Of a stretch of DNA of 64,000 nucleotides, positions 9 to 47,482 are shown one piece after another. Position numbers and translations under genes: made by a program. Origin of the DNA: a virus (taxonomy: Duplodnaviria; Caudoviricetes); IMG/VR virus record IMGVR_UViG_3300021399_000002, positions 118,656 through 182,655 of that record. The stretch is one strand, 5' to 3'. The notes under the pieces are model-generated. The model was given only the letters and a program-made list of their open reading frames with translations, did not search any database and was not told the DNA's origin. Numbering within the stretch: position 1 is the stretch's first letter; each line of letters begins with the position of its first letter.

Positions 9-1736
9 ATGCATCGTGAATTAGATATCTCAGATGGTATGTCAATCACACAAGAGCAGTTTATGCAGTTAGTACAATTGCCGGAATGCGGTGGTTGGGA
101 CTTACAGTTTGCGGATAAATTAAGAAAGTCTATAGCAAAGAAAAATCCTAAAGAGTATGATGCATTAACAAAACAATTCTTTGATAATGTAAAAGAAAAA
201 GGATTGAGCGAAAAGTTTTGTAATTATGTATGGAATATTGAGATTGCATTGAGCCGTGGATATGGATTTAATGCGGCGCATACATATTCATATTCAATGG
301 TCGCATTACAAGAAATGAATCTTGCACGCTTCTTCCCTATTATATTCTGGAATACCGCAAATCTTATTGTAGATAGTGGTGGCATTCAAACTGTTGAATA
401 TGATGAAGATGGTGAGGCATCTTTAGTAGTTGAAGCAGAACCAGATGAAGATCCAGATGAAGAAGAAGAAGAACAAGAAGAATGGGAAGAAGAGAATGAA
501 GTAACCGAGGGTGAAAAAGAAGATAAGAAAAAAGAGAAAACCAAGAGTATGGATTATGGTAAGGTTGCATCAGCAATCGGCCGATTTAGTACTTATGGAA
601 TTAAAGTTTCGCCGCCGAATATTAATGACTCTTCTTATACTTTCACGCCTGTTGTTTCAAAAAATGAAATCTTATATGGACTTCGTGGTATAACAAGGTT
701 ATCAATCTCAATTATAAAAGATATTATGGATAAGCGTCCATTTACTTCTATGGATGATTTCTTAGAAAGAGTTAAATTAAATAAGATTCAAATGTCTAAC
801 TTAATTAAATGTGGAGCATTTGATGAATTAGTAGGTTTACCTCGTGAAGAAATTATGGCAAAATATATTGATATGATTGCCGATAAAAAACAGAGATTGA
901 CATTACAGAATATGCAAATGCTTATTAATTATGATTTAATTCCAGAAGAACTTATCTTTTGTAAAAAGTTATTCTTATTTAATAAGTTTTTAAAGCAACA
1001 AAAGAAAGTTGAAAATTATCAATTAAATGATGCGGCAATTAACTTTATTGCGAATAACTTTAGTGCCGATTATATCTCAAATGGTGTAAGTATTTCTGCG
1101 GCGGTATGGGATAATCTATACCAGCGTGGTATGGATCCAATGCGTATGTACTTAAAGAAAAATAAAGATGAGGTACTGAATAAATTAAACAAAGCATTAT
1201 ATGATGAGATGTTTAATAAATATGCGGCGGGAAATATATCACATTGGGAAATGGAATCTGTTTCATTTTATAGTCATCCACATGAATTAGCAGATTCTCA
1301 ATATTTATATGATGATTTCTTTAAATTGCCAGAAGAACCAGAAATCGATTATACATTCACTGGCAAAGATGGCAATGAAGTTAGAATATATAAATTAAGA
1401 CGAATTATTGGCACAGTTATTGATAAAAATAAGATGAAGAATACTATAACATTGTTGACGCCAACTGGCGTAGTTAATGTTAAAGTATATAAGAATCAAT
1501 ATGCAATGTTTGATAAACGACTATCTCAGAAAGGTGTTGATGGGCGCAAACATGTAATAGAAAATAGTTGGTTCTCCAGAGGTACATTATTAATGGTTCA
1601 GGGAATCCGGCGCGAAAGCGATTTCATTCCTAAAAAACGAAAAGATAGTTTTTATCCTGTAATTTCTAAAATTACAGCAATACATGATGATGGAACTTTA
1701 GAGTTCCAGACAGAACGAGTTGAGGTGAATGAATGA
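9..1736 (+). CDS. dnaE: DNA polymerase III alpha subunit (DnaE-type), C-terminal part; frame is open at the window start, so probably 5'-truncated
   Basis: ADKLRKSIAKK, GYGFNAAH..YS, PPNINDS, YGLRGI, LIKCGAFD and a C-terminal OB-fold, all typical of family C polymerases; no in-frame TAG. Confidence 0.9.
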   Translation: MHRELDISDGMSITQEQFMQLVQLPECGGWDLQFADKLRKSIAKKNPKEYDALTKQFFDNVKEKGLSEKFCNYVWNIEIALSRGYGFNAAHTYSYSMVALQEMNLARFFPIIFWNTANLIVDSGGIQTVEYDEDGEASLVVEAEPDEDPDEEEEEQEEWEEENEVTEGEKEDKKKEKTKSMDYGKVASAIGRFSTYGIKVSPPNINDSSYTFTPVVSKNEILYGLRGITRLSISIIKDIMDKRPFTSMDDFLERVKLNKIQMSNLIKCGAFDELVGLPREEIMAKYIDMIADKKQRLTLQNMQMLINYDLIPEELIFCKKLFLFNKFLKQQKKVENYQLNDAAINFIANNFSADYISNGVSISAAVWDNLYQRGMDPMRMYLKKNKDEVLNKLNKALYDEMFNKYAAGNISHWEMESVSFYSHPHELADSQYLYDDFFKLPEEPEIDYTFTGKDGNEVRIYKLRRIIGTVIDKNKMKNTITLLTPTGVVNVKVYKNQYAMFDKRLSQKGVDGRKHVIENSWFSRGTLLMVQGIRRESDFIPKKRKDSFYPVISKITAIHDDGTLEFQTERVEVNE

Positions 1737-2836
1737 TGATTGGCTTAGTAGATCTTTAGTTACAGAGTTGGCCAAAATCTCAACTTTGTCCTCCTAATCT
1801 TGAGATAATGAAGTTAGCTAATTATTATCAAACAGAAGAAAATAAGTTTTGTCGTTTAATAAATTTAGATGAAACTGAATTAACTAATTATGAAAAAATT
1901 TATATATTTAGTGAATCTAAAGAATATACTACGGTGCCCGAGGCTTTTCTTCGGGCGCCTAATGTGGTATACGGCGGTACTGCTTTTACAAATGGTATAT
2001 ATGTACCATTTAAAAATAAATTAATTGACTTTACATTACCACGCACTCGTATATATCAAAATTTTCTTAAAGATAAGCGTATTGCAGGATTAGATGATAA
2101 AGAAATTGGAAAATTATTAGACAATTCTTATTATAGATGGCACGCGGGCAATGAAGTATTGCCGCTCCCTGCTGTTCATAAAAGACATAGATTTTATATT
2201 TATGATAATGATTTCTTTCAAGAGGGATGGAGAGAAGTTATTGATAAAATCATGCAGCGAACTCCATCTTCAATACAATTTATTCATCCAGCACATTATA
2301 AGAAAATTTCAGACTTTTTGGAAGTGCGTGAAAATAGTTTAATTGCTCGCGGAAATGATGCATATTTAGATTTAAAGATTCCATTAAAAGAAACGCCAAT
2401 TTTAATGAAACATTATAAGAACAGATTACTTGCAGTAATTCCGCCAAGTTCACAAGTTTACTTATCACTTGGTGGCTCATTCCACTATCAATCAGACTAT
2501 TTTAAAGATATTATTTATAAACTTAATTTATTGTATGTATTTTGGAGTTGTGGTATTCCATTGAAAATAAAATATGAAGAGCCATCAATAGAATGCTATA
2601 ACCCAATTACAGATATATCCAAGCTAATTGCAACTTGGACGCAAGGTGAAACAAGTAAATCTAAATCTATAGTAGAAAGGATTCCTAAAGACAAACGTAT
2701 GACTGAAATTCGCCCCGAGCGCGAACAGCTTGAAATTATAATAAAAAAATATCCTTCTCAAAAGAACTTGTTTTATCAAAGCATGGAAACGGTTAAACAA
2801 GGAGGTTTTTGGAAATATGGAAACTACAGAAGTTAA
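1733..2836 (+). CDS. Phage protein with radical-SAM-family-like N-terminus (no CxxxCxxC seen); one internal TAG at 1757-1759
   Basis: ATG overlaps dnaE stop (ATGA); read-through gives MMIGLVDL[Q]LQSWPKSQLCPPNLEIMKLANYY...YGGTAF, resembling the IGLxDxD..PNLxLMK..GGTG phage family; in frame with ORF 1808..2836. Confidence 0.6.
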
Positions 2837-6542: not shown

Positions 6543-7577
6543 ATGACATACGCACTTATCGGTTGCTTAATTATAATTGGATTTCTGGGAGTTAAACTTT
6601 ATTAGAAACAGAAAATTGATAAAGCTGTTTTAGAAAAATATAAAGCAGATATAGAAACAGTTCGTAATGAATTACATAATGTTGAAGTAGAATCATTGGC
6701 TATGATTCAAAAGTCTGTTAAATGTAAAGCAGAATACGAAGATTATAAGAAAAAGCGTGAATATGAAGAATATAGACTTGAGGAATGTAAGAAAGATCTT
6801 CAAGCAGCACTGGATACTTATCATGATATTACTGATAATAAATTAAAAGAAATTGATAATTCTATTGAAGAATAGCGGCAAAAGCGCTAGCAAGAATTAG
6901 ATTTGGCACTAGAAGAAAAATAGAATTATTATAATAAATTGCTTGAAGATACTATTAATCAATGCAATCTATAGGATGAAACAATTAAAGAAGCTTCAGA
7001 AGCTAAATGGCGCGAAGCTATGGAACAAATTGAACAATATAATAATTCCATAGCAGAAGTTAAAGAACGATTTGAAAGTATTGAACAAACTTTAGCTTAG
7101 TATGAGAAAGATAAACAAGCAAAGTTATTTTATACTATTCAATTGCCTGATGAATATAAAGATGATATTGAGTTTTTGCTAACGACCGTTTCTATGAAAG
7201 TGCAACATCCAGATATCATTTCTAAGTTAGTTTGGGCAGAATATGTTAAACCAAATTTAGATGATACATTCAAACGAATTGAAATTAAATCAGAGCCGGG
7301 AATTTATAAAATAACTAATATAGATACTGGTAAATGCTATATTGGAAAGAGTACTAATGTAAAGACTCGTATTGCCGACCACTTTAAAAGCGCAATTGGA
7401 ATTAAGTCAATAGCCGATTAGGCAGTGCATCATGCTATACTAAAAGAAGGATTTTGGAATTGGTAGATTGAAATTATTACTTATTGTGATAAGGATAAAT
7501 TAAGTGAATTAGAAAAATATTATATAGAGTTCTTTAAATCATAGGAATTTGGATATAATAAAAATGCAGGAGGCTAA
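6543..7577 (+). CDS. Membrane-anchored coiled-coil protein with C-terminal GIY-YIG nuclease domain (several TAG=Gln)
   Basis: N-terminal hydrophobic helix, long E/K/Q-rich coiled coil, GIYKITN..CYIGKS..R..H..E..GYN; in frame with ORF 7143..7421; ends at TAA 7575-7577. Confidence 0.75.
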
Positions 7578-8510: not shown

Positions 8511-9284
8511 ATGAATGAATTACAGACATTAATTGATTCTATTAAGGGATTAACTGATATAGATGATGAAAATTTAACTGATGATATGATGAAAATTATT
8601 CTTGATGGAGTAGAGCAGCAATTCTCAACTGAATTAGTACAGCAGTCTATTAATCAGATTGTAAATAATATGGAAGACCAAGGTTTAAGTAAGGCAGAAG
8701 CACAGGCTGCGATTAAGGCGCTATCTGATACTATGAAAGAAATGATTTATAGTGAAGTGTCTTATACTGGAAATAAAAAGTTGCTAGTAGACACAATTAT
8801 GAATAAAATGTTTAGTATCTTTGATGCCGCTGCGGAAAAGTATCATTCCTATGCTATTGAACTTCCTATTCAGCTAGAAGAGGGCGCACAAGTACCAACA
8901 TACGCGCATGATAGTGATGCTGCCGCTGATATGTATGCAATGGAAGATACGACAATTTCAGCTCATTCTATCGGAACACCAGTAAAGACTGGAGTACATA
9001 TTCAATTACCAGAAGGATGGGTTGCATTTGTGCTACCTCGCTCTAGTATTGGCGCGAAAACTCCTCTTCGTTTAAGCAATAGCGTCGGCGTAATTGATAG
9101 TGGCTATCGCGGGGAGGTACGCGCGCTATATGACAATATTAGTGATGAGCCTTATCAAATTCATAAGGGAGACCGTATAGCACAGATGCTTGTAATGCCA
9201 TCTTATAGATTTAAGGCTAATGTAGTGGATTCTTTAGAGGATTCTGATAGGGGCGAAGCTGGCTTCGGTTCTACAGGAGTATGA
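8511..9284 (+). CDS. dut: Trimeric dUTPase with ~115-aa helical N-terminal extension
   Basis: Motifs AAADM, PRSSIG, GVIDSGYRGE, GDRIAQ, RGEAGFGSTG. Confidence 0.92.
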   Translation: MNELQTLIDSIKGLTDIDDENLTDDMMKIILDGVEQQFSTELVQQSINQIVNNMEDQGLSKAEAQAAIKALSDTMKEMIYSEVSYTGNKKLLVDTIMNKMFSIFDAAAEKYHSYAIELPIQLEEGAQVPTYAHDSDAAADMYAMEDTTISAHSIGTPVKTGVHIQLPEGWVAFVLPRSSIGAKTPLRLSNSVGVIDSGYRGEVRALYDNISDEPYQIHKGDRIAQMLVMPSYRFKANVVDSLEDSDRGEAGFGSTGV

Positions 9285-10033
9285 GTACTATAAATATTTA
9301 TTCTGTCTCTAATGCGTTGGAAGCAGAGGGATGGAAACTTATAAGTGAAACATATAAGAACCTCAAGACTCCACTTGAAATGCAATGTCCGGTTGGACAT
9401 AAATAGGAATAGACTTTTGAGAACTGGCGCAAACATAAGATATGTGATATATGTATGGCCGGCGATCCATATAAAGTCAAAAAAAATAAGGTACCCAAAA
9501 AGGGTACAGATGTATAGCGTATTCTAGCCTTAGATGCGGCAACAAGCACCACAGGCTATGCAATATATGATGATAAAGTATTGGTTGGGTATGGGACTTT
9601 TAAGACAAGCACTACTCTGCCAGCTACTGAGCGTATTAATCAAGTTAAAAATTGGCTTAAGGCCGCATTAAAAGAATGGGAGCCAGATTTTGTAGGTATA
9701 GAAAATATTCAGTTGTAGAAGTATGGTTCTAAAGCAACTGAAGTGCAAGTAAAAACTTTTTAGACTCTTGCAAATCTTCAAGGAGTATTATTAGATACTG
9801 TCTTTGAAGCGTGTATAGACCATGACTTGGTTTACCCGAGTGAATGGCGCTCCTATTGCGGCATAAATGATGGCGATTAGCATCGAGATCCCAAGAAAAA
9901 ATAGGCTTAGGCTAAGGTAAAAATTTGGTATAATATGGATTGCACTGAAGATGAATCTGATGCAATATGTATTGGTAAGTATTGGTGCGGAAAATTACGC
10001 AATAATAAAATTACATGGGGAGAAGATATATGA
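9281..10033 (+). CDS. RuvC-like Holliday junction resolvase with N-terminal zinc-binding domain (multiple TAG=Gln; absent from ORF track)
   Basis: Read-through gives CPVGH..CDIC, then RILALDAATSTTGYAI, VGIENIQ, LANLQGVL, SEWRS, EDESDAICIG; ATGA overlaps at both ends. Confidence 0.85.
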
Positions 10034-10413: not shown

Positions 10414-10456
10414 AAAAAGAAAGCCCGGGACATTTAAGTCCCGGGCTATTTTTTTA
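10414..10456. terminator. Bidirectional intrinsic terminator between the convergent replication and morphogenesis blocks
   Basis: A-tract + AGCCCGGGAC-loop-GTCCCGGGCT + T-tract. Confidence 0.85.
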
Positions 10457-13400
10457 TTTATCATAAGCATACATATTATGAACTACCACTTTTTCTACAA
10501 CAAAAGTACGACAAGGTTCAACATGGCAAGTATATACTGTTTCATCTTGTAAATCATCACGATATTTTATCTATTTAATATAAACTTTTTCATTATTAAT
10601 TGTAACTAATTCATCACTTTCATGAAGTAATTTAGTCTATACTTCATGCTCTTTATAAGCTTGTTCACAATTTAATGAACCCCATCCTGTAGTTGTTAAT
10701 ACTGGATGACTATCCGTTAGAGTTAAAATTGTATCATTAGATAATATCAAATCATAAATCTAATTTTTATGTTTTAACATCTATACTGAAGCAATTTCAC
10801 CCATTTCAATTTGATGTGTAATTTCATTATATGACTTTACCTTTAATCCTACCTATAATTTTTCAATATTAATAGTAGAACCATCATATAATTCTATTTG
10901 CGTTCCTGCGATAAAGCATCCACCACCGCTTGCTTTAGGTATTACTTCAGCAGATGCTCCACTTGGTGGATTCGTTGGGCTGACCGCCGCGGCCGAACTA
11001 TTAGATGTATTATTCGCAGTACAAACAGCATCCCATAATGCTGTACCATCAATACATTTCCATTGAAAGGTGCCAGTTCCAGTTTTTACAAATACCCATA
11101 ATTTTCCTACATGATTATCCCAATTACCTTGGACCACTTCATTACGAGATGCGTCCGATGGCCCATTACCTAAACATAATATTTCTGTATATACTTCCCC
11201 ATTGTTAGTAATTCTAAAAGGAGCCCAATATTCAGGACGAGTGCCATCCCATTTACCTGGTGTTGCATTTTCTGGATAACTTGCGCCAATATACATAGCC
11301 CAATTTCCAGGTGTATTATACCCACCATAATTAACTTTCTTTCCTAAGAATACATTAGATATCCCCGTATCACCATTAGTTAAATTATTATCAACAATGC
11401 TCCAATTACCAATAGACCCACTAGTTGCATTTATATTACCTTTAATTTTTAGTCCACCACTAGAAGAATATTGAATTCCCTATGTAGCATCTTTCCAAGT
11501 TTTATTATCGGCTATATATAAATTTGTATTATAATCAATAGCATTACTTCTAAGAATAAATTTAGAACCATTTGCTACAACTGAAAAATGTGCTCCTGCT
11601 GTTATAGTTAAATCTTTATTAGCATTAATATTTCCATATTTATCAATAGTTAAATAAGCTGTGGTGCCATCAGAATTAAAAAATCCCATATCATCATTAT
11701 CTACAACAAAGCGGCCATTATTACTATCGGCAATGAGCTTTGTAGCTGTTATATTACCTTTTACAGTAACATCCCCACTTGCATCTAACTTAAAATTAGT
11801 CATATTAACTTGCAATGTCCCGGTCCCACCAATAATAATACCTGTTTTTTTAATATTAACGAATGAACCACTAGTTTGATTATAACTAGTTCCTAATACT
11901 ATTTCTGTTGGAGCTATATATACTAATGAACGATTACTTGCATCTCCAGATGCAAGGCCAATAAAATTTTTTGTAGCTTTTATACCAACTATACTAGAAT
12001 TCGATCCAAGAGTTTCTTTTGTAGCGTCTCGTAATGCTGTTAATGACTTATTACCGCCCGCGCCTAAAATAAAATAAGAATCTGTCATTTCTACTGCAGT
12101 ACCACTAGAAGTATTAGAGACTCCAAATAATAAATGTGAAGGTAATAATTCTACACTTACACCAGTAGAAGGGGCAGTAATTGTTTCAGTATCTTTATTA
12201 TACTAAAATCCTCCTGCATATAATCTAACTCCTTTACCACTACCAATCAGAACTCCATTTTCTGGACTGATTTCTATAACAGAAGTAGAAGCAATAGTAT
12301 CTAAAGATGTAACCATCTAAATTTTATTTTTGCCACGCATTAGAATATTAGAAGATGCCATTTCAATTTTAGTCGGATTAATTAATACTTTAGAGATGCC
12401 AGAATCTTCTTCAGAATCTTCTATTAAATCATTGATTTCTTCTTGTGGATCAATATGTTCGCCATCTTTATTTTCAAATTGTACATTATTACCGCCACTA
12501 CTAATTAAATTAATACCACTTATCTCTTCCTACTTAGTTTTTGGATTTCTACCGCTAAGTAAATTAATAGTAGTACCACCAATATTTATTGCTTTATTAC
12601 CAACAATATCTACGCGTTCATCCGCGGCAATATATATATTTCCTCCGGATCCCATATTAATCTAATTTTCTGCTTTAATATCAATAATTCCTGTAACCGC
12701 ATCAACATTTAAGTTAACACCTTTAATCTAAGCAAGTGTACCATCATAGATTTTTCCCCAGCCATCTCCACTATTAGATTCACTTGAATTACAAACAGCA
12801 AGATAACGATACTTTTCCGTTTTACCCTCATCAATCTATATCCAAATATCTCCAGCTTTAAAAGTAGTTGGTGGGTCTGTCTAAGTATAAGTCTAAACCG
12901 CAACTTCCCTACCAATATCTTGAACAAAACTTGCTAAAATCGCGGCATTTTCAGTATTCAATGTACGAATATTATCTAATCCTTTACTAGCATCAGCTAA
13001 TATAGACCCCGCTTCATTAAATATAGAAGTTAATTTTTCTTCTACAGTAGGACTGGTATTAAAATAAGTATCTAAATAATTATTTAAAATAGGAGTATTC
13101 TATGCTAATGTATCAGTAAAGCCTACATTAGATAATCCAGTCTATCCAGATAGTAGACCACTAATACCCTAAGATACTCGTTTCATTTCTTCCGTAGAAG
13201 CAACTATAGTTGAAAATAAATCTTCAAATTTAGTTTTATAATTTCTAACTTCAATAGTGTCCTTCCAAGGTGCATCTAAGTCTAAGTTTAATCTAGATAT
13301 ATATCCAAAAGTATCTTTAAACTTCAATTCAGTATCATTAATCATTAATAATTGCGCGAGTCTATTATATAATGTATGTGACACCCAATATTTTGTATAA

Positions 13401-33124: not shown

Positions 33125-33163
33125 TAAAAAATAAAGAGCCACCTTCCGAAGAAAGTGGCTCTT
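33125..33163 (-). terminator. Intrinsic terminator upstream of tape measure gene
   Basis: AAGAGCCAC...GTGGCTCTT stem followed by U-tract on - strand. Confidence 0.7.
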
Positions 33164-34049: not shown

Positions 34050-34063
34050 AGGTATCACCGCCT

Positions 34064-34109: not shown

Positions 34110-35072
34110 TTACTGAGCTACAGAGCCGATATCGTCTTCAGTAGTGCCACCAGAGGTAGTACCGATGTTATAACGAACTAGCTTCATCATTTCATTCTGA
34201 CCATCATCGTTGGTAGAACGTAATACATTTAGAGTCATTTCAAAGGTAGAAGGATCGCCTTCAGCCTGTAGAGTAATAGTAACATTGCTCTGTACCTTTG
34301 CCTTATTAATAACGAACTGGAATGGCTCATCCTTACCAGTCTTTTCAGAACGCATGAAGGTATCACCAACAACCTTGTAAGTTCCAGGGAAAGTATCAGG
34401 AGAAATGGTTACTTCAATAGCAGTCTCATTTCCTTCATTATTCTGAAGAACTTCTTCCCAGAAAATACGAATGTGATCGCCAGCAGCAGTTAGCTGTTCA
34501 GCAGGTTGTTCAGTAGAATCATAACCGATCATAGCAGGGTTGACGAAATTAATTGCTTTATTACCCGGTAAACTAATCTCCGCTGCGCCTTTCGTAGGTC
34601 TAATTTGAGTACGAGTACCCTGAGTTAAGTTGATTAAACGAATTGGATGTTCGTAAGAAGCTTTTGGAGTTAATTGAACACCAGTTAAATGATCTTTAGG
34701 TAGTGGTACAACACCATTAGTGCCGCAAACTACTTCTTCAGTATGACGTACGATAACAGGCTTACCAGATTCTGGCTTTTTAATAGCGCCACCTAACATG
34801 AAACGTAAAGATTCTAGAGACATTAAAGCATCTTCTAGAGTAATATTGATTTCCTTACCATAATCCCACTGAATTAGACGAGGATTGCCCCAGCCGCCCT
34901 GCGCAGCTGTATTTTCTGCAGTGGTCTCAATGGTGGAAACTTTTAGGGTATCTAAGAATAGAACAATATCACCAGCATATACGCCAGCGGCGAGATCGTC
35001 TTCTAGAGCTTCAAAATAAACATTAGCAACTTCTTTAATGCCATATTTATCAAAAATATTTACATTAGCCAT
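34110..35072 (-). CDS. Major tail (tube) protein
   Basis: TAG-free ORF with highly expressed codon bias; SD AAGGAGG; position between neck genes and TMP; followed by terminator. Confidence 0.75.
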   Translation of the reverse strand: MANVNIFDKYGIKEVANVYFEALEDDLAAGVYAGDIVLFLDTLKVSTIETTAENTAAQGGWGNPRLIQWDYGKEINITLEDALMSLESLRFMLGGAIKKPESGKPVIVRHTEEVVCGTNGVVPLPKDHLTGVQLTPKASYEHPIRLINLTQGTRTQIRPTKGAAEISLPGNKAINFVNPAMIGYDSTEQPAEQLTAAGDHIRIFWEEVLQNNEGNETAIEVTISPDTFPGTYKVVGDTFMRSEKTGKDEPFQFVINKAKVQSNVTITLQAEGDPSTFEMTLNVLRSTNDDGQNEMMKLVRYNIGTTSGGTTEDDIGSVAQ

Positions 35073-35091
35073 AAAAGTTACCTCCTTTAAA

Positions 35092-35871
35092 TTAAGTTTT
35101 TTCTGTACTTGCAATGGAACGCATCCAATGCTTTAACTAAGATTTTTTTAGCTTAGCTCCTGCGAGAGCTGCTTTCTAATTTATATTAAACTAATCACGC
35201 CAGCCCATCCGCTTTAGCTAATCATGAAAAGCATAATATGTAATATCCCAAATATTTATCATATTTAGGCCACAATCATTGATAGCAATACTACCAATTA
35301 AATCAGATAACTTTAAATCAGAACCTTCTTTAGCATTCTATTTTGCTTTTGCTCTACGAACTTTTTCACGATTTTCACGCATTTTTTGTTTTAATTTTTT
35401 TGTCGCAGGTAAATCATCAGCATATATAATAATTTCCTCGCCTTCAACTTCTAAAAAATACATACGGCGCAATACACGCTACAAATCATAAAACTTTTCT
35501 TCATTTAATATGCGTTTATCAGTCAAAGGCCCTATAAAAATTGAAGGAGGGTCTAAACTTAAAGTTATTTCTTCATGAGTAAAAAATTTAAAAGCTCCTT
35601 TTAAATTTTCATTCATATTAATATCTAAATTTGCCATTAAAAGAATAAACTAAAAATCTGTTAATGAATCAATCATTTTCTTCATTTCAGCATCAATATT
35701 CTTTTGCTCTATAGGTTTAGTAGAAGTAATAACAGATAAATATATCTAAAATTTATCATATCCTAAATCTACTATTTCACCCAAAGTAGCAGGATAAACT
35801 GCACAAATATCGTCAATAAAAACGGGACTTCCTTTTTGAAATTTTAATATTTCTGTATCAGTTAAATTCAT
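35092..35871 (-). CDS. Virion morphogenesis hypothetical protein (possible tail assembly factor), TAG=Gln
   Basis: Read-through ORF MNLTDTEIL...AGAKLKKS[Q]LKHWMRSI; ends at TAA just before major tail SD. Confidence 0.6.
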
Positions 35872-36361
35872 TAATCTAATACTGCATAGTATAGCCGCCA
35901 ATTTGTGAAGTAAAAACTGTTCTATCAGCCCGTACAAATTGTAAAGTTCCAATTCCTGCCATCTATGCTCCATTGAATATGTTATCAATGCGTTCCATAA
36001 TTAAGTATGGCCGCAAAGAATGCTCATTTAAAACCCATTCATCATAAGGACAAGCTACTTCGACACCAATTGTATCTATCTTATAATCTGGGTTTATTAC
36101 ATTGGTAATAAAACTATTAAATAATACTACTACATATGAAGTTTTTTCTGTACTATCATCCCATATTTTAGGAGTAATCATAATCTATTTATTTAATAGT
36201 AATATCCCATCTACTTCTTCGTATTTTTCATCAAAAGGATCCCGTACCTAATATTTTAATAGACGACAAAGTTCTCTATCTTTCATAAGCTTATTTGCCA
36301 TATTAAATGCATTATTACCCATTACAGCAAATCTGCGCTAAGTAGGTCGTTCTATTGCCAT
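35858..36361 (-). CDS. Putative tail terminator/neck protein, TAG=Gln
   Basis: Extends ORF 35963..36181 on both sides; LCRLLKY, RPYLIMERID..F..GIGTLQF; synteny. Confidence 0.6.
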
Positions 36362-36371: not shown

Positions 36372-37592
36372 TCACCATAAAGGAATAATCTCTACAGTTT
36401 TGGTATATTCCTTACCCTAATAAGTAGCAATTAAAATAACCTTTCCTAATTTATTTTTATCATTTGCATGAAGTACATATATTTTATTATTATTAGAATC
36501 TACGTCCTCTTTAATAGTTGCATAATCATAAGTTTTTTGATTCTTTTGAATACTTATTTCTGCATTTATAATATTTTCATCAGCTTTTAAAACATAAGTT
36601 CCATAGCGATCTAATTTAATATTATCTGGCCCATCAATATAAATCAAAGATGGTTCATCTTTAGGATAAATAGTAACTTCTACTTCATGTTCTACAGCAG
36701 GCCGATTTTTTAATTGCATTTTAATTATACACTATCCTGGCGCGATAGCATTAAAATTATCATCAATAAAATCACAATCATCCGGTTTGATTAAATTAAT
36801 TTCCCACTAATTCAATGTGTCTTCTTCGAATTTAGGAACAATCTATTCGCCCACCTTATATAATGTTGGTAATGCTGGAAATTTATATCTATCAGTATCA
36901 GCAACATCTATATCCCTATCATCATACTAATAATTGACTTTACTTTCTGTTAATGAAATATAAATAATTCCTTCTACACTAGTCCAGTCACACTCAATAA
37001 CTATCCATCCTTCATTTTCAATAATAAAAGTAACTCCTCTCATTAATTCATTATAATCCTCACTATTTTTTCTAAAAATAGGTCTTGGCATAATAATTTC
37101 TGCAAACTTATTTGGCTATGGAGAAATCAAAGAATGCCACATTCTAAAGTTACTTTTAATTTTACTATCTACAGAACTTACAGCATAAGCCCAAGACTTG
37201 CGTAAATATCCATCTGTATCAATCCATTTTAATTCATAATTACATTTAACCATCTAAAATGTCTAATACTATTCATGTACTTTATGTATTTTCTATAATA
37301 AAAGCCATTTTTCAATAGCTCCATTATCCTATCTCCATGTTACTATATCACCAACTACTATAGGTATATCATTGGCAACATATAAATACATAATTTTCTG
37401 TTCTTCTTTATCTTTACTTGTCTAAATAATCCCACTAAAATAATATCCACGTTCGACAGATAAATCAGTAACAGTAAATGGAGATTGAGCCAGCCATTTT
37501 TCAAAAGCTACAATCCCACTATTATTAATTCTTTCAGCTATTGTCTCTCCAAAGTGATTCACACGGGAAAAATAAACATCAAGATAATTCAT
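36372..37592 (-). CDS. Putative head closure/neck protein with C-terminal Ig-like region, TAG=Gln
   Basis: ATG 37592 in frame with ORF 36417..36719; ends at TGA 36372 with next SD; synteny. Confidence 0.6.
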
Positions 37593-37914
37593 CTGGTATT
37601 GTTAATCCACCAACTAGATTGATACACTCAAAAATATTTTTTCTAAAATACTCATATGATAAATATCGTAAAAGTGCAACTTTTCCTAGTAGTGGCCACC
37701 AATTGATAGAATTTGCCCCAAGACCTAGTAATTCAATTAAAATTGAATCTAAAAATTTTTCCCATTCTCCATCTTTTTCTCTTTCGCAAAGTAATCCGTA
37801 AAAGCGGCCTTTAAGTTTACTTTTATAACTATCAAAAGTTATTTGAGTAAACTTGTCGCTTCCCTGCCAGTTTTCTAAATATTTCTGAAGGGGTTTTTCC
37901 ACGCGATCTGTCAT
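37579..37914 (-). CDS. Hypothetical protein in neck cluster
   Basis: TAG-free ORF; overlaps the adaptor gene 3' end, so the true start may be downstream. Confidence 0.55.
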   Translation of the reverse strand: MTDRVEKPLQKYLENWQGSDKFTQITFDSYKSKLKGRFYGLLCEREKDGEWEKFLDSILIELLGLGANSINWWPLLGKVALLRYLSYEYFRKNIFECINLVGGLTIPDELS

Positions 37915-38335
37915 ATATATCCTACTATTCTTCGACCTCTCGCATCACATTTGCTTCAAGGTCATTCAATTTATCTAAATGATTTGCGGCAGAGAAATCT
38001 TTGGAGGTATAAAGCTATCCAATATGTTCCCAACTAGCGACGCATCTTTTTACCCACTCATGTTTCATATATACAGCAAGTAACTAAATTTCATCGTTAG
38101 TTAAATCTTCTACAAACTAATATATTTTAAACTAAGGAGCATCATCCGTACTATCGACATTAGATACTTCTTCAAAATCTAAACTCACACGAGGATACTT
38201 AAAGCGAGCAATGGCCATTTTGAGAAGTTCTTGCCAGTCTCGTTCTACGATGGCTAACTCTTCTTCTAATGTCCATTCATCAGCAGTTATTCGCGCGAGA
38301 AAAGCATCATAAACCTTTAAGAAGGGCGTTGCCAT
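37832..38335 (-). CDS. Putative head-tail adaptor, 167 aa, TAG=Gln (includes a TAG-TAG pair)
   Basis: TPFLKVYDAFLARIT..AIARF..DLTNDEI[Q]LLA..KDFSAANHL pattern; open to TGA 37832. Confidence 0.65.
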
Positions 38336-38852: not shown

Positions 38853-39959
38853 TTATCCTTGAATTTCATTATTGGCTACAATGCTAGCATTTTCGGTTTC
38901 CCAACCGCTACCCTGAGATAGAGCAGCATTGTAGTAAATTCCCCAATAATTAGGAGTAGTGAATAGACCTACACCAACTTTTACATAACCCTGTAGAGTG
39001 AAGCTATTGTCGCCCTCATGGTCATCCCATTCACGGAAGTAAGGAGATCCTTCGAAAGCCATCTTAATGATCTTTTCCTTACCAGCAGGTAGGACATAAG
39101 CAAAAGCAGGATTAAACTGTAACTTAGTATTGGTTTCATCAGTCCAAGACTGTGGCATTACAACAACTGGTACGCCCTGGAACTTGCCGATATAGCCGCG
39201 TTCACGGATATCAATCATATCCTGATCAGAAATCTTACCACCAACCCAACTTGGATTAGCATTGCTATAAACGATAGCATTTACCATTTCAGCTGCAAAC
39301 TCAGGAGTACAATAAATAATTGGGCTGCCATAAGGAGCAACGGTATTGCATAGTTTCTTCATAGCAATAGGATTGAACTGATTGGTTGCAACCTTGTTGC
39401 GAGCGGGACGGCCTGCGGCGTTCCAAGAATTTAGTAAGCAACCCTGTACCATTTCAAATAGACGGTCAACAATACCTTCCTGGATAACTTCATAAATATC
39501 AGTCATGGATTCTAGACCATCAAGATAACGCTCAAAGTCTACATATCCAGCGCCGCCAATAGCCTGAATGTATAGATCGAAACGATCATGATCTAGACGG
39601 AAGGTCTCATAGTTACCAGATTCAGTAGCACGAGTAACGAACTGCTTACCACGAATCTTGCCACGAACTACGCGGAACTCTGGGCGCTGACCCTGAGCAT
39701 AATTCTTTACTTCAACAAACATATCAAGAGCACTCTTGACATTCTGTGGTAGAACTTCCTGTAGATTTTCTTCTAATAGTTCAAATACATCTTCTTTATT
39801 ACGATTGAAGACGTGACGATTGAAGTGTACGCCATCCTTTGTCATTAGCTTAGCTAATTCATCACGGAGAGCAGCTTCGTAATCATAATTTTCTGCTGCA
39901 AATTCAGCAGGAACGGCACGACCAAATACGCCGTTCATTAACATATGTAGCTTATTCAT
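38853..39959 (-). CDS. Major capsid protein
   Basis: ~368-aa TAG-free ORF with strong codon bias, after protease/scaffold and decoration gene; GYIGKFQGVPVV; followed by terminator. Confidence 0.8.
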   Translation of the reverse strand: MNKLHMLMNGVFGRAVPAEFAAENYDYEAALRDELAKLMTKDGVHFNRHVFNRNKEDVFELLEENLQEVLPQNVKSALDMFVEVKNYAQGQRPEFRVVRGKIRGKQFVTRATESGNYETFRLDHDRFDLYIQAIGGAGYVDFERYLDGLESMTDIYEVIQEGIVDRLFEMVQGCLLNSWNAAGRPARNKVATNQFNPIAMKKLCNTVAPYGSPIIYCTPEFAAEMVNAIVYSNANPSWVGGKISDQDMIDIRERGYIGKFQGVPVVVMPQSWTDETNTKLQFNPAFAYVLPAGKEKIIKMAFEGSPYFREWDDHEGDNSFTLQGYVKVGVGLFTTPNYWGIYYNAALSQGSGWETENASIVANNEIQG

Positions 39960-39973
39960 AAGTCGCACCTCCA

Positions 39974-40603
39974 TTATAGTTTGATAATCTGATACTTAAC
40001 GCCCTTTCCGCCATTAGGAATGGTGTAATATTTAGTTACACGAGCATAGATACCAGACTGTGGTTTAGTTTTAGTTAGCTGTGGAACAGCCTTATTTACG
40101 CTACCCTGAGCAACGCCAGGTACTACATAAAGAGCATTAGCAGCTAAGGATAGATCCTTTTCAAGAGCTTCCCATAGTTTAGCTTCAGTAGCGAATTCAG
40201 ATTCATCATACTGTAAGCAGTTAGTAGTTACAGTATCACCTACGCCTAATAGACCAACACGAGGATAATCCCCAGCGATCTTGCGGCCAAAACGTTGTAG
40301 ACCATAGTGTTCACGATCATATTCTTTTTCAGTAGTATAAACAATACCAATAGGGGCATCAGTTGCAGCGGCGGGTGGATTGATAGCGCCAGCGGCCTTG
40401 TCAGCAACGACCCACATACCATTCTCACAAGGAGCGGCCTTTGTAAAAGCGTCTCCGAGAGGAGTCTGGGAAACTACCATACCAGTCTTTGGGAATGCTA
40501 CCTGGTTTAGTTCTAGGCTGGCATATAGCTTTTCATCGGGATCGCGATGCTGGTCAACTAGATCGCCCACAACATTGGTAATAGGAAATCTTTTCATTGC
40601 CAT
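39974..40603 (-). CDS. Capsid decoration/cement-like structural protein
   Basis: TAG-free ORF between scaffold and MCP; ENGM..V signature. Confidence 0.6.
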   Translation of the reverse strand: MAMKRFPITNVVGDLVDQHRDPDEKLYASLELNQVAFPKTGMVVSQTPLGDAFTKAAPCENGMWVVADKAAGAINPPAAATDAPIGIVYTTEKEYDREHYGLQRFGRKIAGDYPRVGLLGVGDTVTTNCLQYDESEFATEAKLWEALEKDLSLAANALYVVPGVAQGSVNKAVPQLTKTKPQSGIYARVTKYYTIPNGGKGVKYQIIKL

Positions 40604-40616
40604 AAGTTATTCCTCC

Positions 40617-41921
40617 TTAATTCTTGCGATATTTTTCCATAAATAACGCGAATTCATCAACAACGGGTTCTGGTAGTGGAACTACTTTGTTGTCAGCACT
40701 GCCAGCCATGTGTTTTTTAGCATAGCAAATTGCGAGTTTGCTTTCCAATTCATCTAAAGAAAAATTATTTATATTTTCACGAATTGGGCTAATTTCTTCC
40801 TCAGTTAAATCAGTTGCGTACTGTTCAATTAAGGAATTTTTTTGTTCTACTTCTAAACGAGTGCGCTCGGCTTCATAGGTAGCAATCTCATTACGCAAGG
40901 TAGCTTCAGTCTCAGACGCGGATGTTATCTGGGCCTCAAGTTCTTGAATACGAGTTTGAGCATTCTCATAATTAGTAGTCATTTCATTTAATTGATTTTC
41001 AAGCTCAGTAATGCGAGCTTCAAAATCTGGTGCGGGTTCGGCCGCGGGTTCAGGCTCCGTAGCAGCTGGTTCTGCGGGTTCTGCCGCAGGTTCAACTGGT
41101 TCAGCAGCAGGTTCTTCAGCAGCAAAATTTTCTGCTGGTTCTGCGGCTGGCTCTGCAGCTGGTTCAGCCGCAGGCTCAACTGGAGCTACTGGCTCCTGAT
41201 TTACAGGTTCTTCCTGTACAGGAGTGGGTTCATTTACTTCGGGATTTACAACATTTTCCATTTGATGTTCCCCTCCTTCTTTTGGTTGTTTTTCAGCCTC
41301 TTCAACTTTAGCTTTCAAATCCGCCAATAGAGAAGAGAACTTTTCATATTGAGATTTATATGTATCATCATTTTTACTGAAGAATGAAGATACAGAAAAA
41401 CATGGTTCATGATCTCCTATAATACATAGCCCCATGATTTCAGCTTTAGTATAAACAAAATATTCAGTATCGCCAATATTTGCCCAGTCACCTTCAATGG
41501 AATTAATATCAAGCTCCATAGATTGATGTTGGCCTACTACAAAATTAGCTTCATTAAAATATTTAGTAAATAATACTACAGAAAAGACTGCATAATCGCG
41601 TTCTACTCCATCAGTATCCTTAAATGGCTGCCATCCATCAAAGTATTCGACATATCCATAAGCGCTAGCAAGGGTAGGCCCAGTATGGCTTGCCCAGCCT
41701 TGTGATTCTGGATCAAAGAAGCCAACTACTGGAGTATCTCCTTTAGTTGCACTATTAATTAACATTTCTGCGACATCGTCTTTAATATAGGAACCATTAC
41801 GATTACCATATTTAGTAAAAACACCAACTTTCAATCTATTAAGATTAGAAGCACCATTAATAGACTCGGCAGGCGACATAATGATAGCATTATCAAAATA
41901 AATTGGAATATTTTTTCTCAT
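40617..41921 (-). CDS. Prohead protease/scaffold protein
   Basis: NRNGSYI, HQSMEL, GLCIIG..EPCF protease-like N-domain; AEPA-repeat linker; C-terminal coiled coil; follows portal. Confidence 0.75.
   Translation of the reverse strand: MRKNIPIYFDNAIIMSPAESINGASNLNRLKVGVFTKYGNRNGSYIKDDVAEMLINSATKGDTPVVGFFDPESQGWASHTGPTLASAYGYVEYFDGWQPFKDTDGVERDYAVFSVVLFTKYFNEANFVVGQHQSMELDINSIEGDWANIGDTEYFVYTKAEIMGLCIIGDHEPCFSVSSFFSKNDDTYKSQYEKFSSLLADLKAKVEEAEKQPKEGGEHQMENVVNPEVNEPTPVQEEPVNQEPVAPVEPAAEPAAEPAAEPAENFAAEEPAAEPVEPAAEPAEPAATEPEPAAEPAPDFEARITELENQLNEMTTNYENAQTRIQELEAQITSASETEATLRNEIATYEAERTRLEVEQKNSLIEQYATDLTEEEISPIRENINNFSLDELESKLAICYAKKHMAGSADNKVVPLPEPVVDEFALFMEKYRKN
41025..41215 (-). repeat. Coding low-complexity tandem repeat (AEPA)n in scaffold linker
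   Basis: EPAAEPAAEPAAEPAE... visible as GGTTCTGC/GGTTCAGC repeats on +. Confidence 0.8.
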
Positions 41922-41937: not shown

Positions 41938-43482
41938 TTAGCTCATACTATCAATATTTTGTTGCGTTTTCTAGGAACGATCTTCATCTGCTAAAGTGGG
42001 TCTTCCGCCCTTATTAGTTATGTCCCTAGGCTAAGATAAACCATTACTATTTTTTTCTCCAGAATTATTTTTTTTCGTAGAATTTTCATCACCAGATTGA
42101 GTATAAGAAGATAATAATGGCCGCATTTTTTCATCTAGATTTAAAAATTCATTTTCAAAATCAACTGTACTTACTAAATTGCGCTATTTAATACCCATTG
42201 CCGCGCCTACGCGCATTCTTGGATAGCCAAATTGGGCCATAGATAAATAGTAATCTTTATAATCTTTAATATTAAATTTTGTTACTGGTAATATTTCAAA
42301 ATCAAAACTTAATCCTGTACGAGTAAAGCGACTATTGATCAAGAATTTAATCCAAGTGGCATATGCATTAATATACTCTTGCATAACACTTTCTAAACGC
42401 TTAATAACATATGCTAATGAAGAACTATTATCTGCATTAAAAAATAATTTACTGCTTCCTAAAGAATCCCAAGCATTATCACTATATTTTTCAATACGAT
42501 TATTAGATTGGGTTGCCGCGGATGAGTCTTGTAAATTTTCTAAAGTAGTATCCCCTAATGTTGTTAATACATCAACTGTATCTAAATCCTAAAGCATACT
42601 AGCAACTCCAGCATGTATTTCTGCTATTTCATCTAATTCAAATACTAAATGGCCATTGCTATCAACTGGCATTTTTTGTATTAACAATTTATATAACTCA
42701 TTTTCATCTCGTTTTTCTTCTCGCTTTACAGCATCTTTCATTTTAGCCAATTCGGGAATAGAAGCTACGAGCAATGGAGTTGTATCTTCTGAAAAACAAA
42801 AAACTATCCCACCCGCGCTTGCAGGTACCATGATCCATGGATCTGTTAATTTTTTTGCTTTATATAATTTCCATCCCTATTGGATTGCTGGTGGGAAATT
42901 AAGTAAAGCGGCATCGCGCGTTTTCTCATCTTCATATTTAGTTAAGAAATAAGTAATATTAAACTCTAAAACACATAAATTATTAAAATCTTTTAATCTT
43001 GTGCGGCAATATTCCTATGGTAAATCCTATATAACAACTTTGTTGCCATGTTCTTGTAAAATACCATAATAAATACCTGATTTAAGCCATTCACGCGTAA
43101 TGCGAGTTAATGTATTTTTAATATCTAACGCTTCTACAAAATTACATGCATTATAAAATGCTTTTATAATCTATGCTTTAGATCCTTTTCCTGTTTCATA
43201 AATAGGAGTAACTAATGTTTCATAAAGAAAAAGTGTAGAAAGAAAATTAATATTATTACGATAACGACCATTGGTTCTATAATAGTATCGAGATAATTCA
43301 CGGATAGCAGAAATTTCGCCTGAACGAATTATTTCTTCTATTTCCTCTATAGTTAAATCTCGATTCATAACGCTATTTGTTCTATTACCGCCCCAACGAG
43401 AGAGGCGTTCACGAGAATCAATAGGAACATAATTAATACGAAACTATGGTCTTGCAAACATAGTTTTAAAATCCTAACTCAT
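41938..43482 (-). CDS. Portal protein, ~514 aa, TAG=Gln (third codon is TAG)
   Basis: Fragments 43171-43368, 42589-42831 and 42184-42384 in one frame; between terminase and protease; C-terminal SSYTQSG..GGRP typical of this portal type. Confidence 0.75.
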
Positions 43483-43487
43483 AAAAA

Positions 43488-45272
43488 TCACCTCCTATTT
43501 TTAGGAGTGAAGAAACCAAACTAACCAATATTCTTTTTTCTGCGTTTAAAAATTTCTTTATCTTCATAATATTTTATTCTATACATTGCATATTCAAGTG
43601 CGCTAAAACGGTCTTTTTCAATTGATTTTGAAATACGTTCAACTTTATATTTATTTTCAACACCAGTTGGTTTTAGCCGCAAGTTGTTAAGTTCATCCAT
43701 AAGGCGAGAAGTCATTTCATATGGTAATAAAAATACTCGTCTATCATATGATGTCATTTTCTAACCTTTCTTTGTTTTAATTAATTTATCTTTAATAACT
43801 CGTTCATGCGCTAAAAATGAAGTAGACCCATTATTTATACTAGTAAGAAATGCTGCATGAATCTCATCTTCATTAGAAGCAGAAGCCTTAATATCATATA
43901 TAATAGCATTATATTTAATATTGGGCTCCTCTACTATATCATGTAATTCTGGCGGCAAATGATTTTCATTATTAAAAGTAAAATATGCAGGAAATTGTTC
44001 TCCTGTTTTTGCGTCAAAAGAAGGTAATACCATTGCATCCATAAGGCCAATACCTGGACCATTGCCATCAATAACAATCTCTTTAGGATGATATAATTCA
44101 ATTAATTTTTTAATACGAGGCGCCTATACAGTAATATAGTTTTCGCCATGTATTACTTCAGTATAAATTACATGCTTCTTAAAACGTTGTTCTCCAGGCA
44201 ATACCTTAATAACCATAATAGCAGTATTCGCGCCATAGCGTGCTACGTCAACACCAATTATATAGAAAGCACCATCTGGTAAATTATCTAATGCCTTACG
44301 TTCACATTTTAATAAAGAACGATGCTTATTAAGTCGGCGTGAATCAAGCCATGCATCCTTACTATTACCGCTCCATATCGATAATGATTCGCGCGCGAAA
44401 GAATCCTCGCTTACTGTATTAGAATAACGTTGATCCATTAGGGTTGCTTTATCTAATAGGCCATAATGCAATGGTACTTCATAAGAGAGACCCCATGAGA
44501 AGTATTCCTTCGGTCGCAAAACCGCATTCACAGTAATCTCAATAAGCTTCTAATACATAAATACAGTACGTTCTGCAGCAGTTGTGATAAAGATTTGAGA
44601 AGAACTTGGCTCATTGGGATTTAAAGAGCCATCTACTTCTCTACGAGCAATATTCATTTGTGGCCAAAGTACTTCATTAAATGGTACTTCTTCAATTAGC
44701 GCTGCTTCTTCTAAGATTGCAGCAGTTGCACGTAATCCGCGGGATGTATCTTTAGATACAACAGAAATCATACTACCATTTTTTAAGTACAACTCATAAT
44801 AATTGGTACTTGCTTTTTGTCCGGTTTTACCATCATCTGCGCGCGTTTTTAATTCTTTCCTTAATAGCGGCCAGTGTCTAAATATTTCTTCAAACTTAGC
44901 CTCCGCAATTTTAATAACTGTTCCTTTGGTATCGGAAGCAATCATTATTGTGGAATTAGGTAAAAGCACCGCGCGAATAAGTGCACTTAAATAAGCAGTA
45001 AATGATTTAGAAGTCGCACGGGTAGCAGTCCAGAATGTATATCTATAGCGCATAGCTGCGCGCAATTCTACTCGTTGAAAAGGCATTAGATGAAAATGTT
45101 TTGCATCTGTCGAATCTTGTATAATATCGAGTAGAAGGTCTGGATATCGTATCCATAAGTCAAGATATTTAGTAAATAATTCTTGATTTGCATCGAGGTA
45201 TTCGCGCGTTAGAACAACACCTTTTTCAATTGGTATTCCATCCCGCAATACAGCTTCATCAAAATCATTCAT
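43488..45272 (-). CDS. terL: Terminase large subunit, ~594 aa, 4 internal TAG
   Basis: Q-motif MPFQ, Walker A ATRATSKS, RGLRA, Walker B ILEEAA, ITTA, nuclease IGVDVAR, DGNGPG, KDRFSA; four in-frame fragments each ending at TAG. Confidence 0.9.
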
Positions 45273-46218
45273 CTGTACCCCCTCCCATCAATTCGGCAGA
45301 GAGTTCATCTTCTCCTTCATATTCTACATCTGCAGTTTCATCAAAATCAACTTTTTCATTTTCAATTTCTTCAAGCCGTTCGGTCATATTATAACGTGCG
45401 CGTCTATCTTCTACTTGCTCTGCAAAATTTCCCTCATTTATAACAAGCCTCTTTAGATAATTCTAAATATTCTCCATCATAAAGTCAATGGAATCTTGCG
45501 GCTCAGTATGCCAATTAGGATGCCATCCTTTCTTACCATAATAAACCATTAGCTCTCCCACTGATTCAAAGTCCGCCGCGGATTTCGCATTAGAAGCTTC
45601 AAAATGATAAGTTTTTACAATATCATCGGCTTGTTTCATCATTTTAGAAACATCTACGCCATTTCTTAGCCCTTCCTTAATATGGAGTTGAAGTTCACAA
45701 AAGTCCCTAGCTTTTTCTTGAAGAATAGGAGTAGAAACATTTTGCGTTGCAACAATCTAATTATAAAAATTATCAAGCCATAAAAGCTGTTCTGGTTTAT
45801 AGGCCGCAGACCATACTTTTCTCAATCGTTTAAGTTTTGCTTCATTCAAAACTTTAATTTCATCATCAATGGTACCCTCTTCGCGCGCGAGACGCCATCT
45901 TTCATTTTCATCGGCCCATTTTAAAGGCTCATAATGCTCTCCATATAATAAATTAAAATACATAGTAAGAGTATGATCTTTATGCTATGCATATAACTAT
46001 GTCCACTTATCAAGATCGAAAGGCAAATCAAGCCAACGCATAAGTCGATCTACTTCTCCTAAATTATCTTGTGGTACCATAGTCTCAAGACATGGTGTAC
46101 AAATATAGCATCTTCCGCCAGGAAAAAATTTTGATGGAGTTGATTGAAACAATAATAGCGGCTATTCTCGTTTACATTTTAGGCATCGTCGGGTCTTTGT
46201 ATCTGAGGTCATTGCCAT
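45265..46218 (-). CDS. Zinc-finger protein upstream of TerL, putative terminase small subunit (TAG=Gln)
   Basis: CLKC..CTPC N-terminus; in frame with ORF 45757..45963; TGA overlaps terL start. Confidence 0.55.
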
Positions 46219-47482
46219 TATTCACCACTCCTCTTTTTACGCGTGAAGCTCTATCGCATTCTTTACAAGTATTAGATAATCCATCTTTATGGGTGTTGTT
46301 GCGGCTAAAGAAAAGTGTATCCATTGGAAATATTTTTCCGCAGTGAATACATTTCTTTCGCATATTAGGCGGCGTCTCTAGTTCTAAACGCAATTGCCGG
46401 GCAATTTTTGCAATCTTATTTGGAATTTCTGTATTGACAATTGTAATAACATAATTAGGAGAATACTCTATATTATACTATATACGCATTTCTTCTATAA
46501 TATCCTCATAATATAGCCCCATCTTACGCCATTCTACAAGGCTTTGCCGCAATGGGGTTAAATTGCATAAAGACAAATAGCGATCTAAATCCCATAGTAA
46601 GGTCACCCCATATGTATTTAATTTGTCATGTAGGGCTTCGCGCAAGGTACAGTACTAATTAAGTAGGGCGCGAATATGTTTAGGGTTCTCCCAATCAAAT
46701 GTATGCTAGCAAATTACCCACTTAACTTCTAAATCATCTCCCTCTCCACGAGTCTCGTAGTCTGCTAAATTCTTAGAAACTCGTGATGTATAGGCATGAT
46801 CTACTCGATCTTTCCATGATTCGCGCGAAACCCAATAAAAGGAATCGCCGCTCCAATCATAAAATTGTTGTTTCGGATGGTCTAAATTTTGAAAATGTAA
46901 AGTTGGCTTATAAGAATCTTTCAAATAATACTAATGTTTCCTCATATCAATTAAATTATGCTTTAATTGATATATACGGAAAGAATCCGTTACAATAGTA
47001 TCAGACTCATTTGGCGCAATTTTGCCTTGCGCGATATCAAGCATGCGTTGCCATCTATCAATAGCTTCCCATTGTTCTACCATGCCAGGAATGTCTGAAT
47101 CGCCGGGGTCAACCATTTCTCCAGTTACTTTATCATATTTAGGGCGCATAATTGTAGGCTTAGGCGCAGTATAGGAATCGCGCTTGTACGCAGAACGCAT
47201 TTGCTGTTCATCAAAACCTGGAGCTTCCATAATCTCATCCAGCGACTATACCTTATCTTCTTTCACTGTATAACTCTTATATTTTTTATTTCTATCTGTA
47301 CATTCATTACGCTATATTGCATTCTAACCATTTTCGTCTTTGCCGTATAAGATGTAGGAGGCCATTTGTTCCAACTCTATTGCGGTTGGATCGGTTTCTA
47401 AAGAATCAATAATTTTTGCAATTGCGGTGCATCGGTCCGAATCACGTTCTATAGAATAATCGAGTTGGTATTTCTTTTTCAT
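46172..47482 (-). CDS. ~436-aa protein with sigma-region-4/HTH-like segment and C-terminal CxxC-CxxC zinc finger; first gene of late block (TAG=Gln)
   Basis: Fragments 46931-47230, 46706-46924 and 46172-46393 in one frame with ATG 47482 (SD GGAGGTGG); KKCIHCG..FFSRN..DGLSNTCKEC. Confidence 0.7.

Follow-up and report, generated by a model that had tools for sequence, protein, structure and literature searches.

Reassignment of the stop codon TAG to glutamine (Gln, Q; genetic code 15) is a published property of gut phages (10.1101/2021.08.26.457843, PMC9523058), as was already stated when such recoding was first predicted for the DNA analyzed here. Borges et al. (10.1101/2021.08.26.457843) described TAG-to-Gln late genes, a phage suppressor tRNA, charging by the host and close standard-code relatives, with data that include large TAG-recoded phages from cattle, and Peters et al. 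(PMC9523058) provided proteomic proof of code 15 in crAss-like phages. We analyzed a stretch of 64,000 nucleotides from a Caudoviricetes virus (IMG/VR record IMGVR_UViG_3300021399_000002), called the window below, which corresponds to bases 118656-182655, i.e. the final third, of one 182,655-bp contig; positions are those of the window unless otherwise indicated. The last 127 bases of the contig repeat its first 127 (direct terminal repeats), and the IMG/VR record lists direct terminal repeats and an estimated completeness of 100%; this is the complete, terminally redundant genome of a rumen-type phage, of ~182.5 kb and with a GC content of 35%. We are highly confident that the virus is a large siphovirus with an SPbeta-type capsid and tail tube in which TAG is used as a Gln codon, and it is a further case of the published code-15 recoding.

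Reading TAG as a sense codon had a strong effect on gene structure between positions 1733 and 47482. Coding density rose from 52.5% under the standard code (code 11) to 97.4%, so that the comparison of codes suggested along with the original prediction came out in its favour (0.525 vs. 0.974), and the median length of the open reading frames (ORFs) increased from 93 to 307 amino acids (aa). In this region, 28 ORFs hold 299 in-frame TAG codons, while in-frame TAA and TGA codons number zero. Over the whole genome, coding density was 0.665 with code 11, 0.907 with TAG as sense, 0.708 with TGA as sense and 0.844 with TAA as sense, TAA being the commonest stop of this AT-rich genome. The 593 in-frame TAG codons are spread over 93 of the 219 ORFs, which terminate in TAA (156) or TGA (63). 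The ORFs called with code 11 are fragments that the TAG-sense reading joins into long frames, all ending in TAA or TGA. Of the essential genes said to be split by TAG, those for the large terminase (TerL), portal, tape measure protein (TMP) and RuvC-like protein were indeed restored to full length by read-through, with TAA or TGA as terminator. Profile matches also run across the TAGs, over residues 38-515 of the portal (phrog_2739), residues 58-575 of TerL (phrog_2) and, for PhageMin_Tail, inside the TMP. The three TAG-spanning peptides quoted at the outset were all located in the TMP, with TAG as residues 830, 4770 and 4810, and the four-base overlaps of start and stop codons are present (ATGA at 1733-1736 and GTGA at 43488-43491). 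We rejected the idea that TAG is a regular terminator: it occurs within the last 20 codons of 28 ORFs, compared to ~42 expected, with no enrichment near ORF ends. Annotation with the standard code breaks about half of the window into fragments, whereas reading TAG as Gln gives a clean virion module of TerL, portal, capsid, tube and a 5012-aa tape measure.

To determine the amino acid inserted at TAG, we compared the phage with 71 related IMG/VR loci (L009-L079; 63-98% identity) found through its capsid gene. Eleven TAG-bearing genes of the window were aligned to these loci on DNA (tblastn), with TAG entered as X, because the stored translations of the clade already read Q at TAG, making their use circular. 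Matches to the clade in public protein collections were set aside as amino-acid evidence on the same grounds; in P0002, for example, which is 99% identical to the phage PhoH protein, each of the six TAGs has been translated as Q. At 110 TAG sites, Q was the residue in 1337 of ~3800 cells, TAG itself was kept in 631, and K, E, W and Y accounted for 414, 297, 39 and 24, respectively. Glutamine was the plurality residue at 38 of 89 TAG sites, as well as at 23 of the 31 TAG sites with at least 70% conservation. When substitution profiles for each amino acid were drawn from the same alignments, the log-likelihood at TAG columns was best for Q (-7679), with K next (-10797).

The columns of standard-code relatives were likewise enriched for Gln, the check that had been proposed with the prediction. 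In a subset of 17 relatives with a standard or nearly standard code, Q occupied 43% of TAG-aligned cells, compared to 46% self-conservation of true Gln codons and a Q background of 3.1% (14-fold lower). By count, 463 of 1121 TAG-aligned cells in this subset were Q, as were 27 of 42 conserved TAG sites. In the phage PhoH gene (L006:13261-14574), one of six TAGs takes the place of the Gln that is invariant in the D-x-x-Q-x-D motif; this column is Q in 121 of 122 homologue representatives (at most about 50% identical) and also in PDB 3b85. If TAG is left aside, Gln makes up 1-2% of the residues of TAG-rich genes; when TAG is counted, it makes up 3.6-6.3%, the level seen in TAG-free genes.

TAG is unevenly used along the genome. 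Its share among Gln-type codons, computed per genome block, was 0.48 in the minus-strand virion block (10.4-47.5 kb), 0.35 both in the plus-strand late block (genome 7.5-55 kb) and in genome block 81-94 kb, and 0.32 in the GIY-YIG and RuvC genes. It fell to 0.10 in the small early-type genes (47.5-64 kb of the window plus genome 0-7.5 kb), 0.04 in the replication and nucleotide block and 0.01 in genome block 67-81 kb. The expectation that recoding extends across the late genes held for most of them, but not for the capsid, the tail tube and the two genes that lie between portal and capsid (209 and 434 aa): these four are TAG-free and use CAG, while their neighbours in the virion block use TAG and CAA. 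Avoidance is also seen in the relatives. Among Gln-type codons, TAG made up 3 of 952 in the capsid gene of the 71 relatives, 1 of 458 in the 209-aa gene and 12 of 325 in the tail tube gene, compared to 19-38% in portal, TerL, neck and tail genes. TAG may have been removed by selection from the highest-copy proteins as a cost of read-through, and the TAG-free capsid and tail tube would then point to a cost that is measurable.

The window was said to contain no suppressor tRNA or release factor, and ARAGORN confirms that there is no tRNA in it. In the rest of the genome, where a suppressor tRNA, a release factor or a glutaminyl-tRNA synthetase (GlnRS) might have been expected, only the tRNA came to light: neither an RF-1 domain nor a GlnRS/GluRS catalytic domain turned up in six-frame searches of the genome. 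The phage must therefore depend on its host for charging and termination. ARAGORN found 24 tRNA genes at genome 55-66 kb, the first of which is a tRNA(CUA) (55157-55242). This tRNA of 86 nucleotides (nt) has the pairs U1-A72 and G2-C71, G73 as discriminator and a variable region of 19 nt. Over the 17 nt of the anticodon arm, it differs from the phage tRNA-Trp(CCA) only at nucleotide 35. Derivation of the whole molecule from the clade tRNA-Gln(CUG) or from tRNA-Trp was considered and rejected, as only the anticodon arm fits tRNA-Trp and the remainder aligns unconvincingly. About 450 nt upstream lies a near-consensus promoter (TTGACT, 17-nt spacer, TATAAT), followed in order by a cow-rumen-4 RNA motif, a TAG-free small ORF and the tRNA(CUA).

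Several other RNA elements lie in this part of the genome. The cow-rumen-4 RNA (L004:9710-9775) sits between the strong promoter and the small ORF, and both a full-length ROOL RNA (266 bits; L005:6551-7130, genome 66551-67130) and a cow-rumen-3 RNA (L004:12910-13053) are in or beside the tRNA array. ARAGORN also reported a tRNA-like gene with an undetermined two-base anticodon at genome 64854-64925. A theta ribozyme next to the suppressor tRNA has been reported for some code-15 phages (PMC10879173); Rfam gave no match to this hepatitis delta virus-like ribozyme within L004 9400-11000.

The related loci form a mixed clade of 44 recoded and 27 standard-code loci, the latter with 0-3 in-frame TAG per ~4500 aligned codons. 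Homologues of the tRNA(CUA) occur in four recoded complete relatives. The complete 181-kb relative G005, on the other hand, uses the standard code, with a code-11 density of 0.88 and TAG ending 26 of its 229 ORFs, and over its full length it contains no tRNA(CUA). It carries both tRNA-Gln(CUG) and tRNA-Gln(UUG), one of them at 156566-156639; the recoded phage has a tRNA-Gln(UUG) (genome 65991-66065) but no tRNA-Gln(CUG). The clade thus provides a natural experiment on code change, in which the presence of the suppressor tRNA tracks the code. Recoded and standard-code loci overlap in capsid identity (63-98%), and intermediates with a low TAG share exist (0.12 in L034 and L073, 0.06 in L053). 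Repeated or gradual code change within the clade is suggested. A crude density test had marked L041 as TGA-recoded, but its in-frame counts (one TGA, two TAG) argue otherwise; there is no tRNA in this record.

We propose the following scheme for decoding. The tRNA(CUA) would be transcribed from the near-consensus host-type promoter ~450 nt upstream and is predicted to be charged with Gln by the host GlnRS, since its acceptor end resembles that of Escherichia coli tRNA-Gln (U1-A72, G2-C71, G73). It would then compete with host release factor 1 (RF1) at UAG, in such a way that read-through is never perfect and depends on the build-up of the tRNA. With imperfect read-through, most late genes and some of the middle ones would tolerate TAG, early and replication genes would be under selection against it, and the most abundant proteins (capsid, tail tube) would be kept nearly free of it. 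The host class is probably Clostridia. A candidate host comes from a single related 47-kb contig binned in an Acutalibacteraceae metagenome-assembled genome, which encodes GlnRS (742 bits, cut-off 426) and RF1 (prfA and glnS both above cut-offs).

The most radical alternative is that the in-frame TAGs are real stops, belonging to pseudogenes, to a dead or misassembled genome or to separate small genes. Code 11 does yield many ORFs of 60-150 aa, each with a possible start codon. Against this, the joined frames accumulate all 593 TAGs without a single TAA or TGA, one frame of 5012 codons is open save for TAG, profile matches extend over the TAGs, and the genome is complete with terminal repeats; moreover, the pattern recurs in the 44 recoded loci, which come from other samples and share part of the TAG positions (the 631 cells that keep TAG). 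We give this explanation virtually no credence. That TAG is sense but encodes another amino acid, either Trp or Ser, Leu or Tyr, is very improbable. The anticodon arm shared with tRNA-Trp(CCA) save for position 35 would fit Trp, and a tRNA of 86 nt with a long variable region like that of class II tRNAs, and with tRNA-Sec as its nearest Rfam family, would fit Ser, Leu or Tyr. The log-likelihoods (W -19710, Y -16434, L -14925, S -12600) are nevertheless far below that of Q, of the 1121 cells of the standard-code relatives, 15 are W, 8 are Y, 40 are S and 44 are L, compared to 463 for Q, and the invariant PhoH column is Q. We also rejected the assignment of the suppressor to class II (Ser, Leu, Tyr) or to tRNA-Sec, as the Sec match is sub-threshold, the acceptor end is Gln-like and the protein columns reject Ser, Leu and Tyr. 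The reading of TAG as Gln does have points that weigh against it. The tRNA(CUA) is atypical, its best Rfam match (tRNA-Sec) scoring 33.2 bits, below the gathering score of 47, and its charging by host GlnRS is putative. As the residue is deduced from conservation, a minority of another amino acid, such as Trp, would be possible. In a few genes the single TAG lies 5-18 codons ahead of the stop codon; termination at TAG may persist for some early genes early in infection. The link to Acutalibacteraceae, through one binned contig, is weak.

How complete the reassignment is during infection is a more delicate question. In the model put forward for such phages by Borges et al. (10.1101/2021.08.26.457843), partial reassignment acts as a timer: UAG would be a stop early on, through host RF1, and late genes would have to wait for the build-up of the suppressor, making TAG a gate for late and lytic functions instead of a mere equivalent of CAG. 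The near-absence of TAG from early, middle and replication blocks and its frequency in late blocks are as expected from such a timer, and the candidate host encodes RF1. On the other hand, the tRNA lies behind a strong host-type promoter and could be made from the start of infection, and several non-structural genes are TAG-rich, including those for PhoH, the RuvC-like and GIY-YIG proteins, a 561-aa helicase-like protein (26 TAG) and a 974-aa protein (30 TAG). An efficiency cost would account for the avoidance of TAG in the capsid and tail tube, which are late proteins, better than a timer alone. We consider a timer a real possibility, somewhat less likely than not.

The long variable region of the tRNA(CUA) places it in a wider class. 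An IMG/VR scan with the anticodon arm alone gave 106 distinct tRNA(CUA), 62 of normal length and 44 long; the long class amounts to 45 once the phage's own copy is added. The motif Y-U-Y-U-G is present in the variable region of 36 of the 45. Among 28 distinct variable regions, two pairs closing a 7-nt loop were formed in all 28 and a third pair in 20. The second of the loop-closing pairs is of five types (GC 10, CG 12, UA 4, AU 1, UG 1), and shifted registers or two alternative pairings scored much worse over the same regions. Within the loop, 22 regions have the triplet CUG and 6 have UUG, both being Gln anticodons; the U before the triplet and the A after it also match a genuine anticodon loop (Y-U-[C/U]-U-G-A-N). 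The acceptor end of the hairpin class (n=36) has a weak or mismatched 1-72 pair in 30, G73 in 28 and G2-C71 in 31, whereas normal-length tRNA(CUA) mostly have G1-C72 and A73. Minimum-energy folding recovered the covariation-supported hairpin in only 9 of the 28 sequences. The copy in the phage analyzed here has a stem of just two G-C pairs, and a competing UCUG/CGGA helix has the greater stability; this copy may be a weakened form.

One explanation, which we offer tentatively and regard as rather doubtful, is that a non-decoding Gln 'anticodon' loop confers Gln identity on a tRNA whose true anticodon lacks G36. As an identity element, the hairpin would account for phages that read UAG as Gln and have no synthetase of their own; it would explain how they get host enzymes to load their stop-codon reader and would provide a natural template for suppressor-tRNA engineering. 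A phage tRNA design with a Gln-anticodon hairpin in the variable arm appears to be undescribed, our literature search having found no paper on a natural hairpin of this kind.

The window contains replication genes, a virion module and a set of small genes. Its first genes serve replication and nucleotide metabolism, namely a fragment of a DNA polymerase III alpha gene and the gene for NrdD. The DNA polymerase III alpha-like gene occupies 3-1736, its TGA stop overlapping as ATGA with the ATG of a 367-aa ORF at 1733-2836 (plus strand) that has one in-frame TAG. On the same strand are genes for a 344-aa GIY-YIG nuclease (6543-7577; 9 TAG; Pfam GIY-YIG 1.1e-9) and a 250-aa RuvC-like resolvase (9281-10033; 8 TAG; Pfam RuvC 24.6 bits, cut-off 22.2).

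The virion block follows, on the minus strand. At 10454-16279 is a 1941-aa tail or fibre-type protein with 40 TAG, or 58% of its Gln codons; sub-threshold Hint/Vint-like matches at residues 1782-1893 suggest that its C-terminus may be a self-cleaving or intein-like module. Next come a 582-aa protein (16308-18056; 14 TAG) with a weak match to the distal tail family Sipho_tail, and the 5012-aa tape-measure-type protein (18062-33100), with 167 TAG, no TAA or TGA, and matches to PhageMin_Tail (1.5e-31) and Choline_bind_3. The latter protein is exceptionally long, with PhageMin_Tail near residues 620-823 and choline-binding repeats near the C-terminus. A 298-aa virion structural protein (phrog_2729; 33162-34058; 5 TAG) precedes the 334-aa YomU-like tail tube protein (34110-35114; TAG-free, CAA 4, CAG 11; YomU-type cluster score 0.99), and beyond this are a 298-aa neck or tail protein (phrog_4051; 35092-35988; 8 TAG) and two further proteins of the block, of 406 aa (36372-37592; 12 TAG) and 167 aa (37832-38335; 6 TAG). 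The SPbeta YonB-like major capsid protein (373 aa; 38853-39974; TAG-free, CAA 1, CAG 15) has a YonB-type cluster score of 0.99. The TAG-free 209-aa and coiled-coil-rich 434-aa genes lie at 39974-41921, a position that suggests a protease or scaffold role. The 517-aa portal (41938-43491; 10 TAG; phrog_2739 1.5e-69) has a GTG start that overlaps the TerL stop as GTGA. TerL itself (594 aa; 43488-45272) has four TAGs, at residues 241, 383, 504 and 584, and no match by sequence to solved structures. Two genes at 45265-47482 encode proteins of 317 aa (5 TAG; phrog_3314) and 436 aa (7 TAG). The 436-aa protein (46172-47482), which heads the virion operon, combines a sigma-factor-like phrog_5767 match (1.4e-19) with a C-terminal HNH/endonuclease VII-like zinc motif.

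The remainder, from 47561 to 64000, consists of small early-type genes with a GC content of 40-46%, in which TAG is rare. It includes a higher-GC stretch (59846-63580) with long ORFs on both strands. A plus-strand ORF at 59978-60958 has an AAA_5 ATPase domain, and the Gln codons of a 517-aa ORF at 61078-62631 are all CAG (21; CAA 0, TAG 0), unlike in the rest of the genome.

Overall, the phage resembles the known code-15 phages of gut and rumen (Lak, crAss-like and 'gemstone' clades) in the concentration of TAG in structural and lysis genes, with replication genes mostly standard, in its tRNA(CUA), its close standard-code relatives and low GC, and in having no synthetase of its own, such that host GlnRS is assumed. 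It differs from them in belonging to an SPbeta-like siphovirus lineage, with a YonB capsid and YomU tube. What is added is DNA-level proof of the Gln assignment in this lineage, a mixed-code clade in which presence of the tRNA follows the code, a clade-wide exclusion of TAG from capsid and tube genes, and the placement of the phage tRNA in a class bearing a Gln-anticodon hairpin.

Among laboratory suppressors, E. coli su+7 is tRNA-Trp with the anticodon CUA, charged mainly with Gln, and supE is tRNA-Gln with its anticodon changed from CUG to CUA. The phage tRNA shares with su+7 and supE the CUA anticodon, an anticodon arm equal to that of tRNA-Trp save for nucleotide 35, and the weak first acceptor pair U1-A72 and discriminator G73 that GlnRS prefers. 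Unlike them, it is natural, phage-encoded and equipped with a long variable arm, and the rest of its body fits neither the tRNA-Trp nor the tRNA-Gln of the clade. The E. coli amber suppressors were cited by Borges et al. (10.1101/2021.08.26.457843) as a precedent for Gln charging of UAG suppressors; near-total avoidance of TAG in capsid and tube was not found stated in that preprint, where 'major capsid' has 0 occurrences. The variable-arm hairpin has its closest counterpart in engineered tRNAs, in which a pseudo-anticodon arm placed in the variable arm recruits a synthetase (Mukai 2020, PMC7590224). Both designs have an anticodon-like 7-nt loop that matches the amino acid to be loaded. The engineered tRNA, however, depended on a synthetase carrying a second, fused anticodon-binding domain (PMC7590224), whereas the phage tRNAs are natural, we know of no such protein for them, and their binding by GlnRS is putative.

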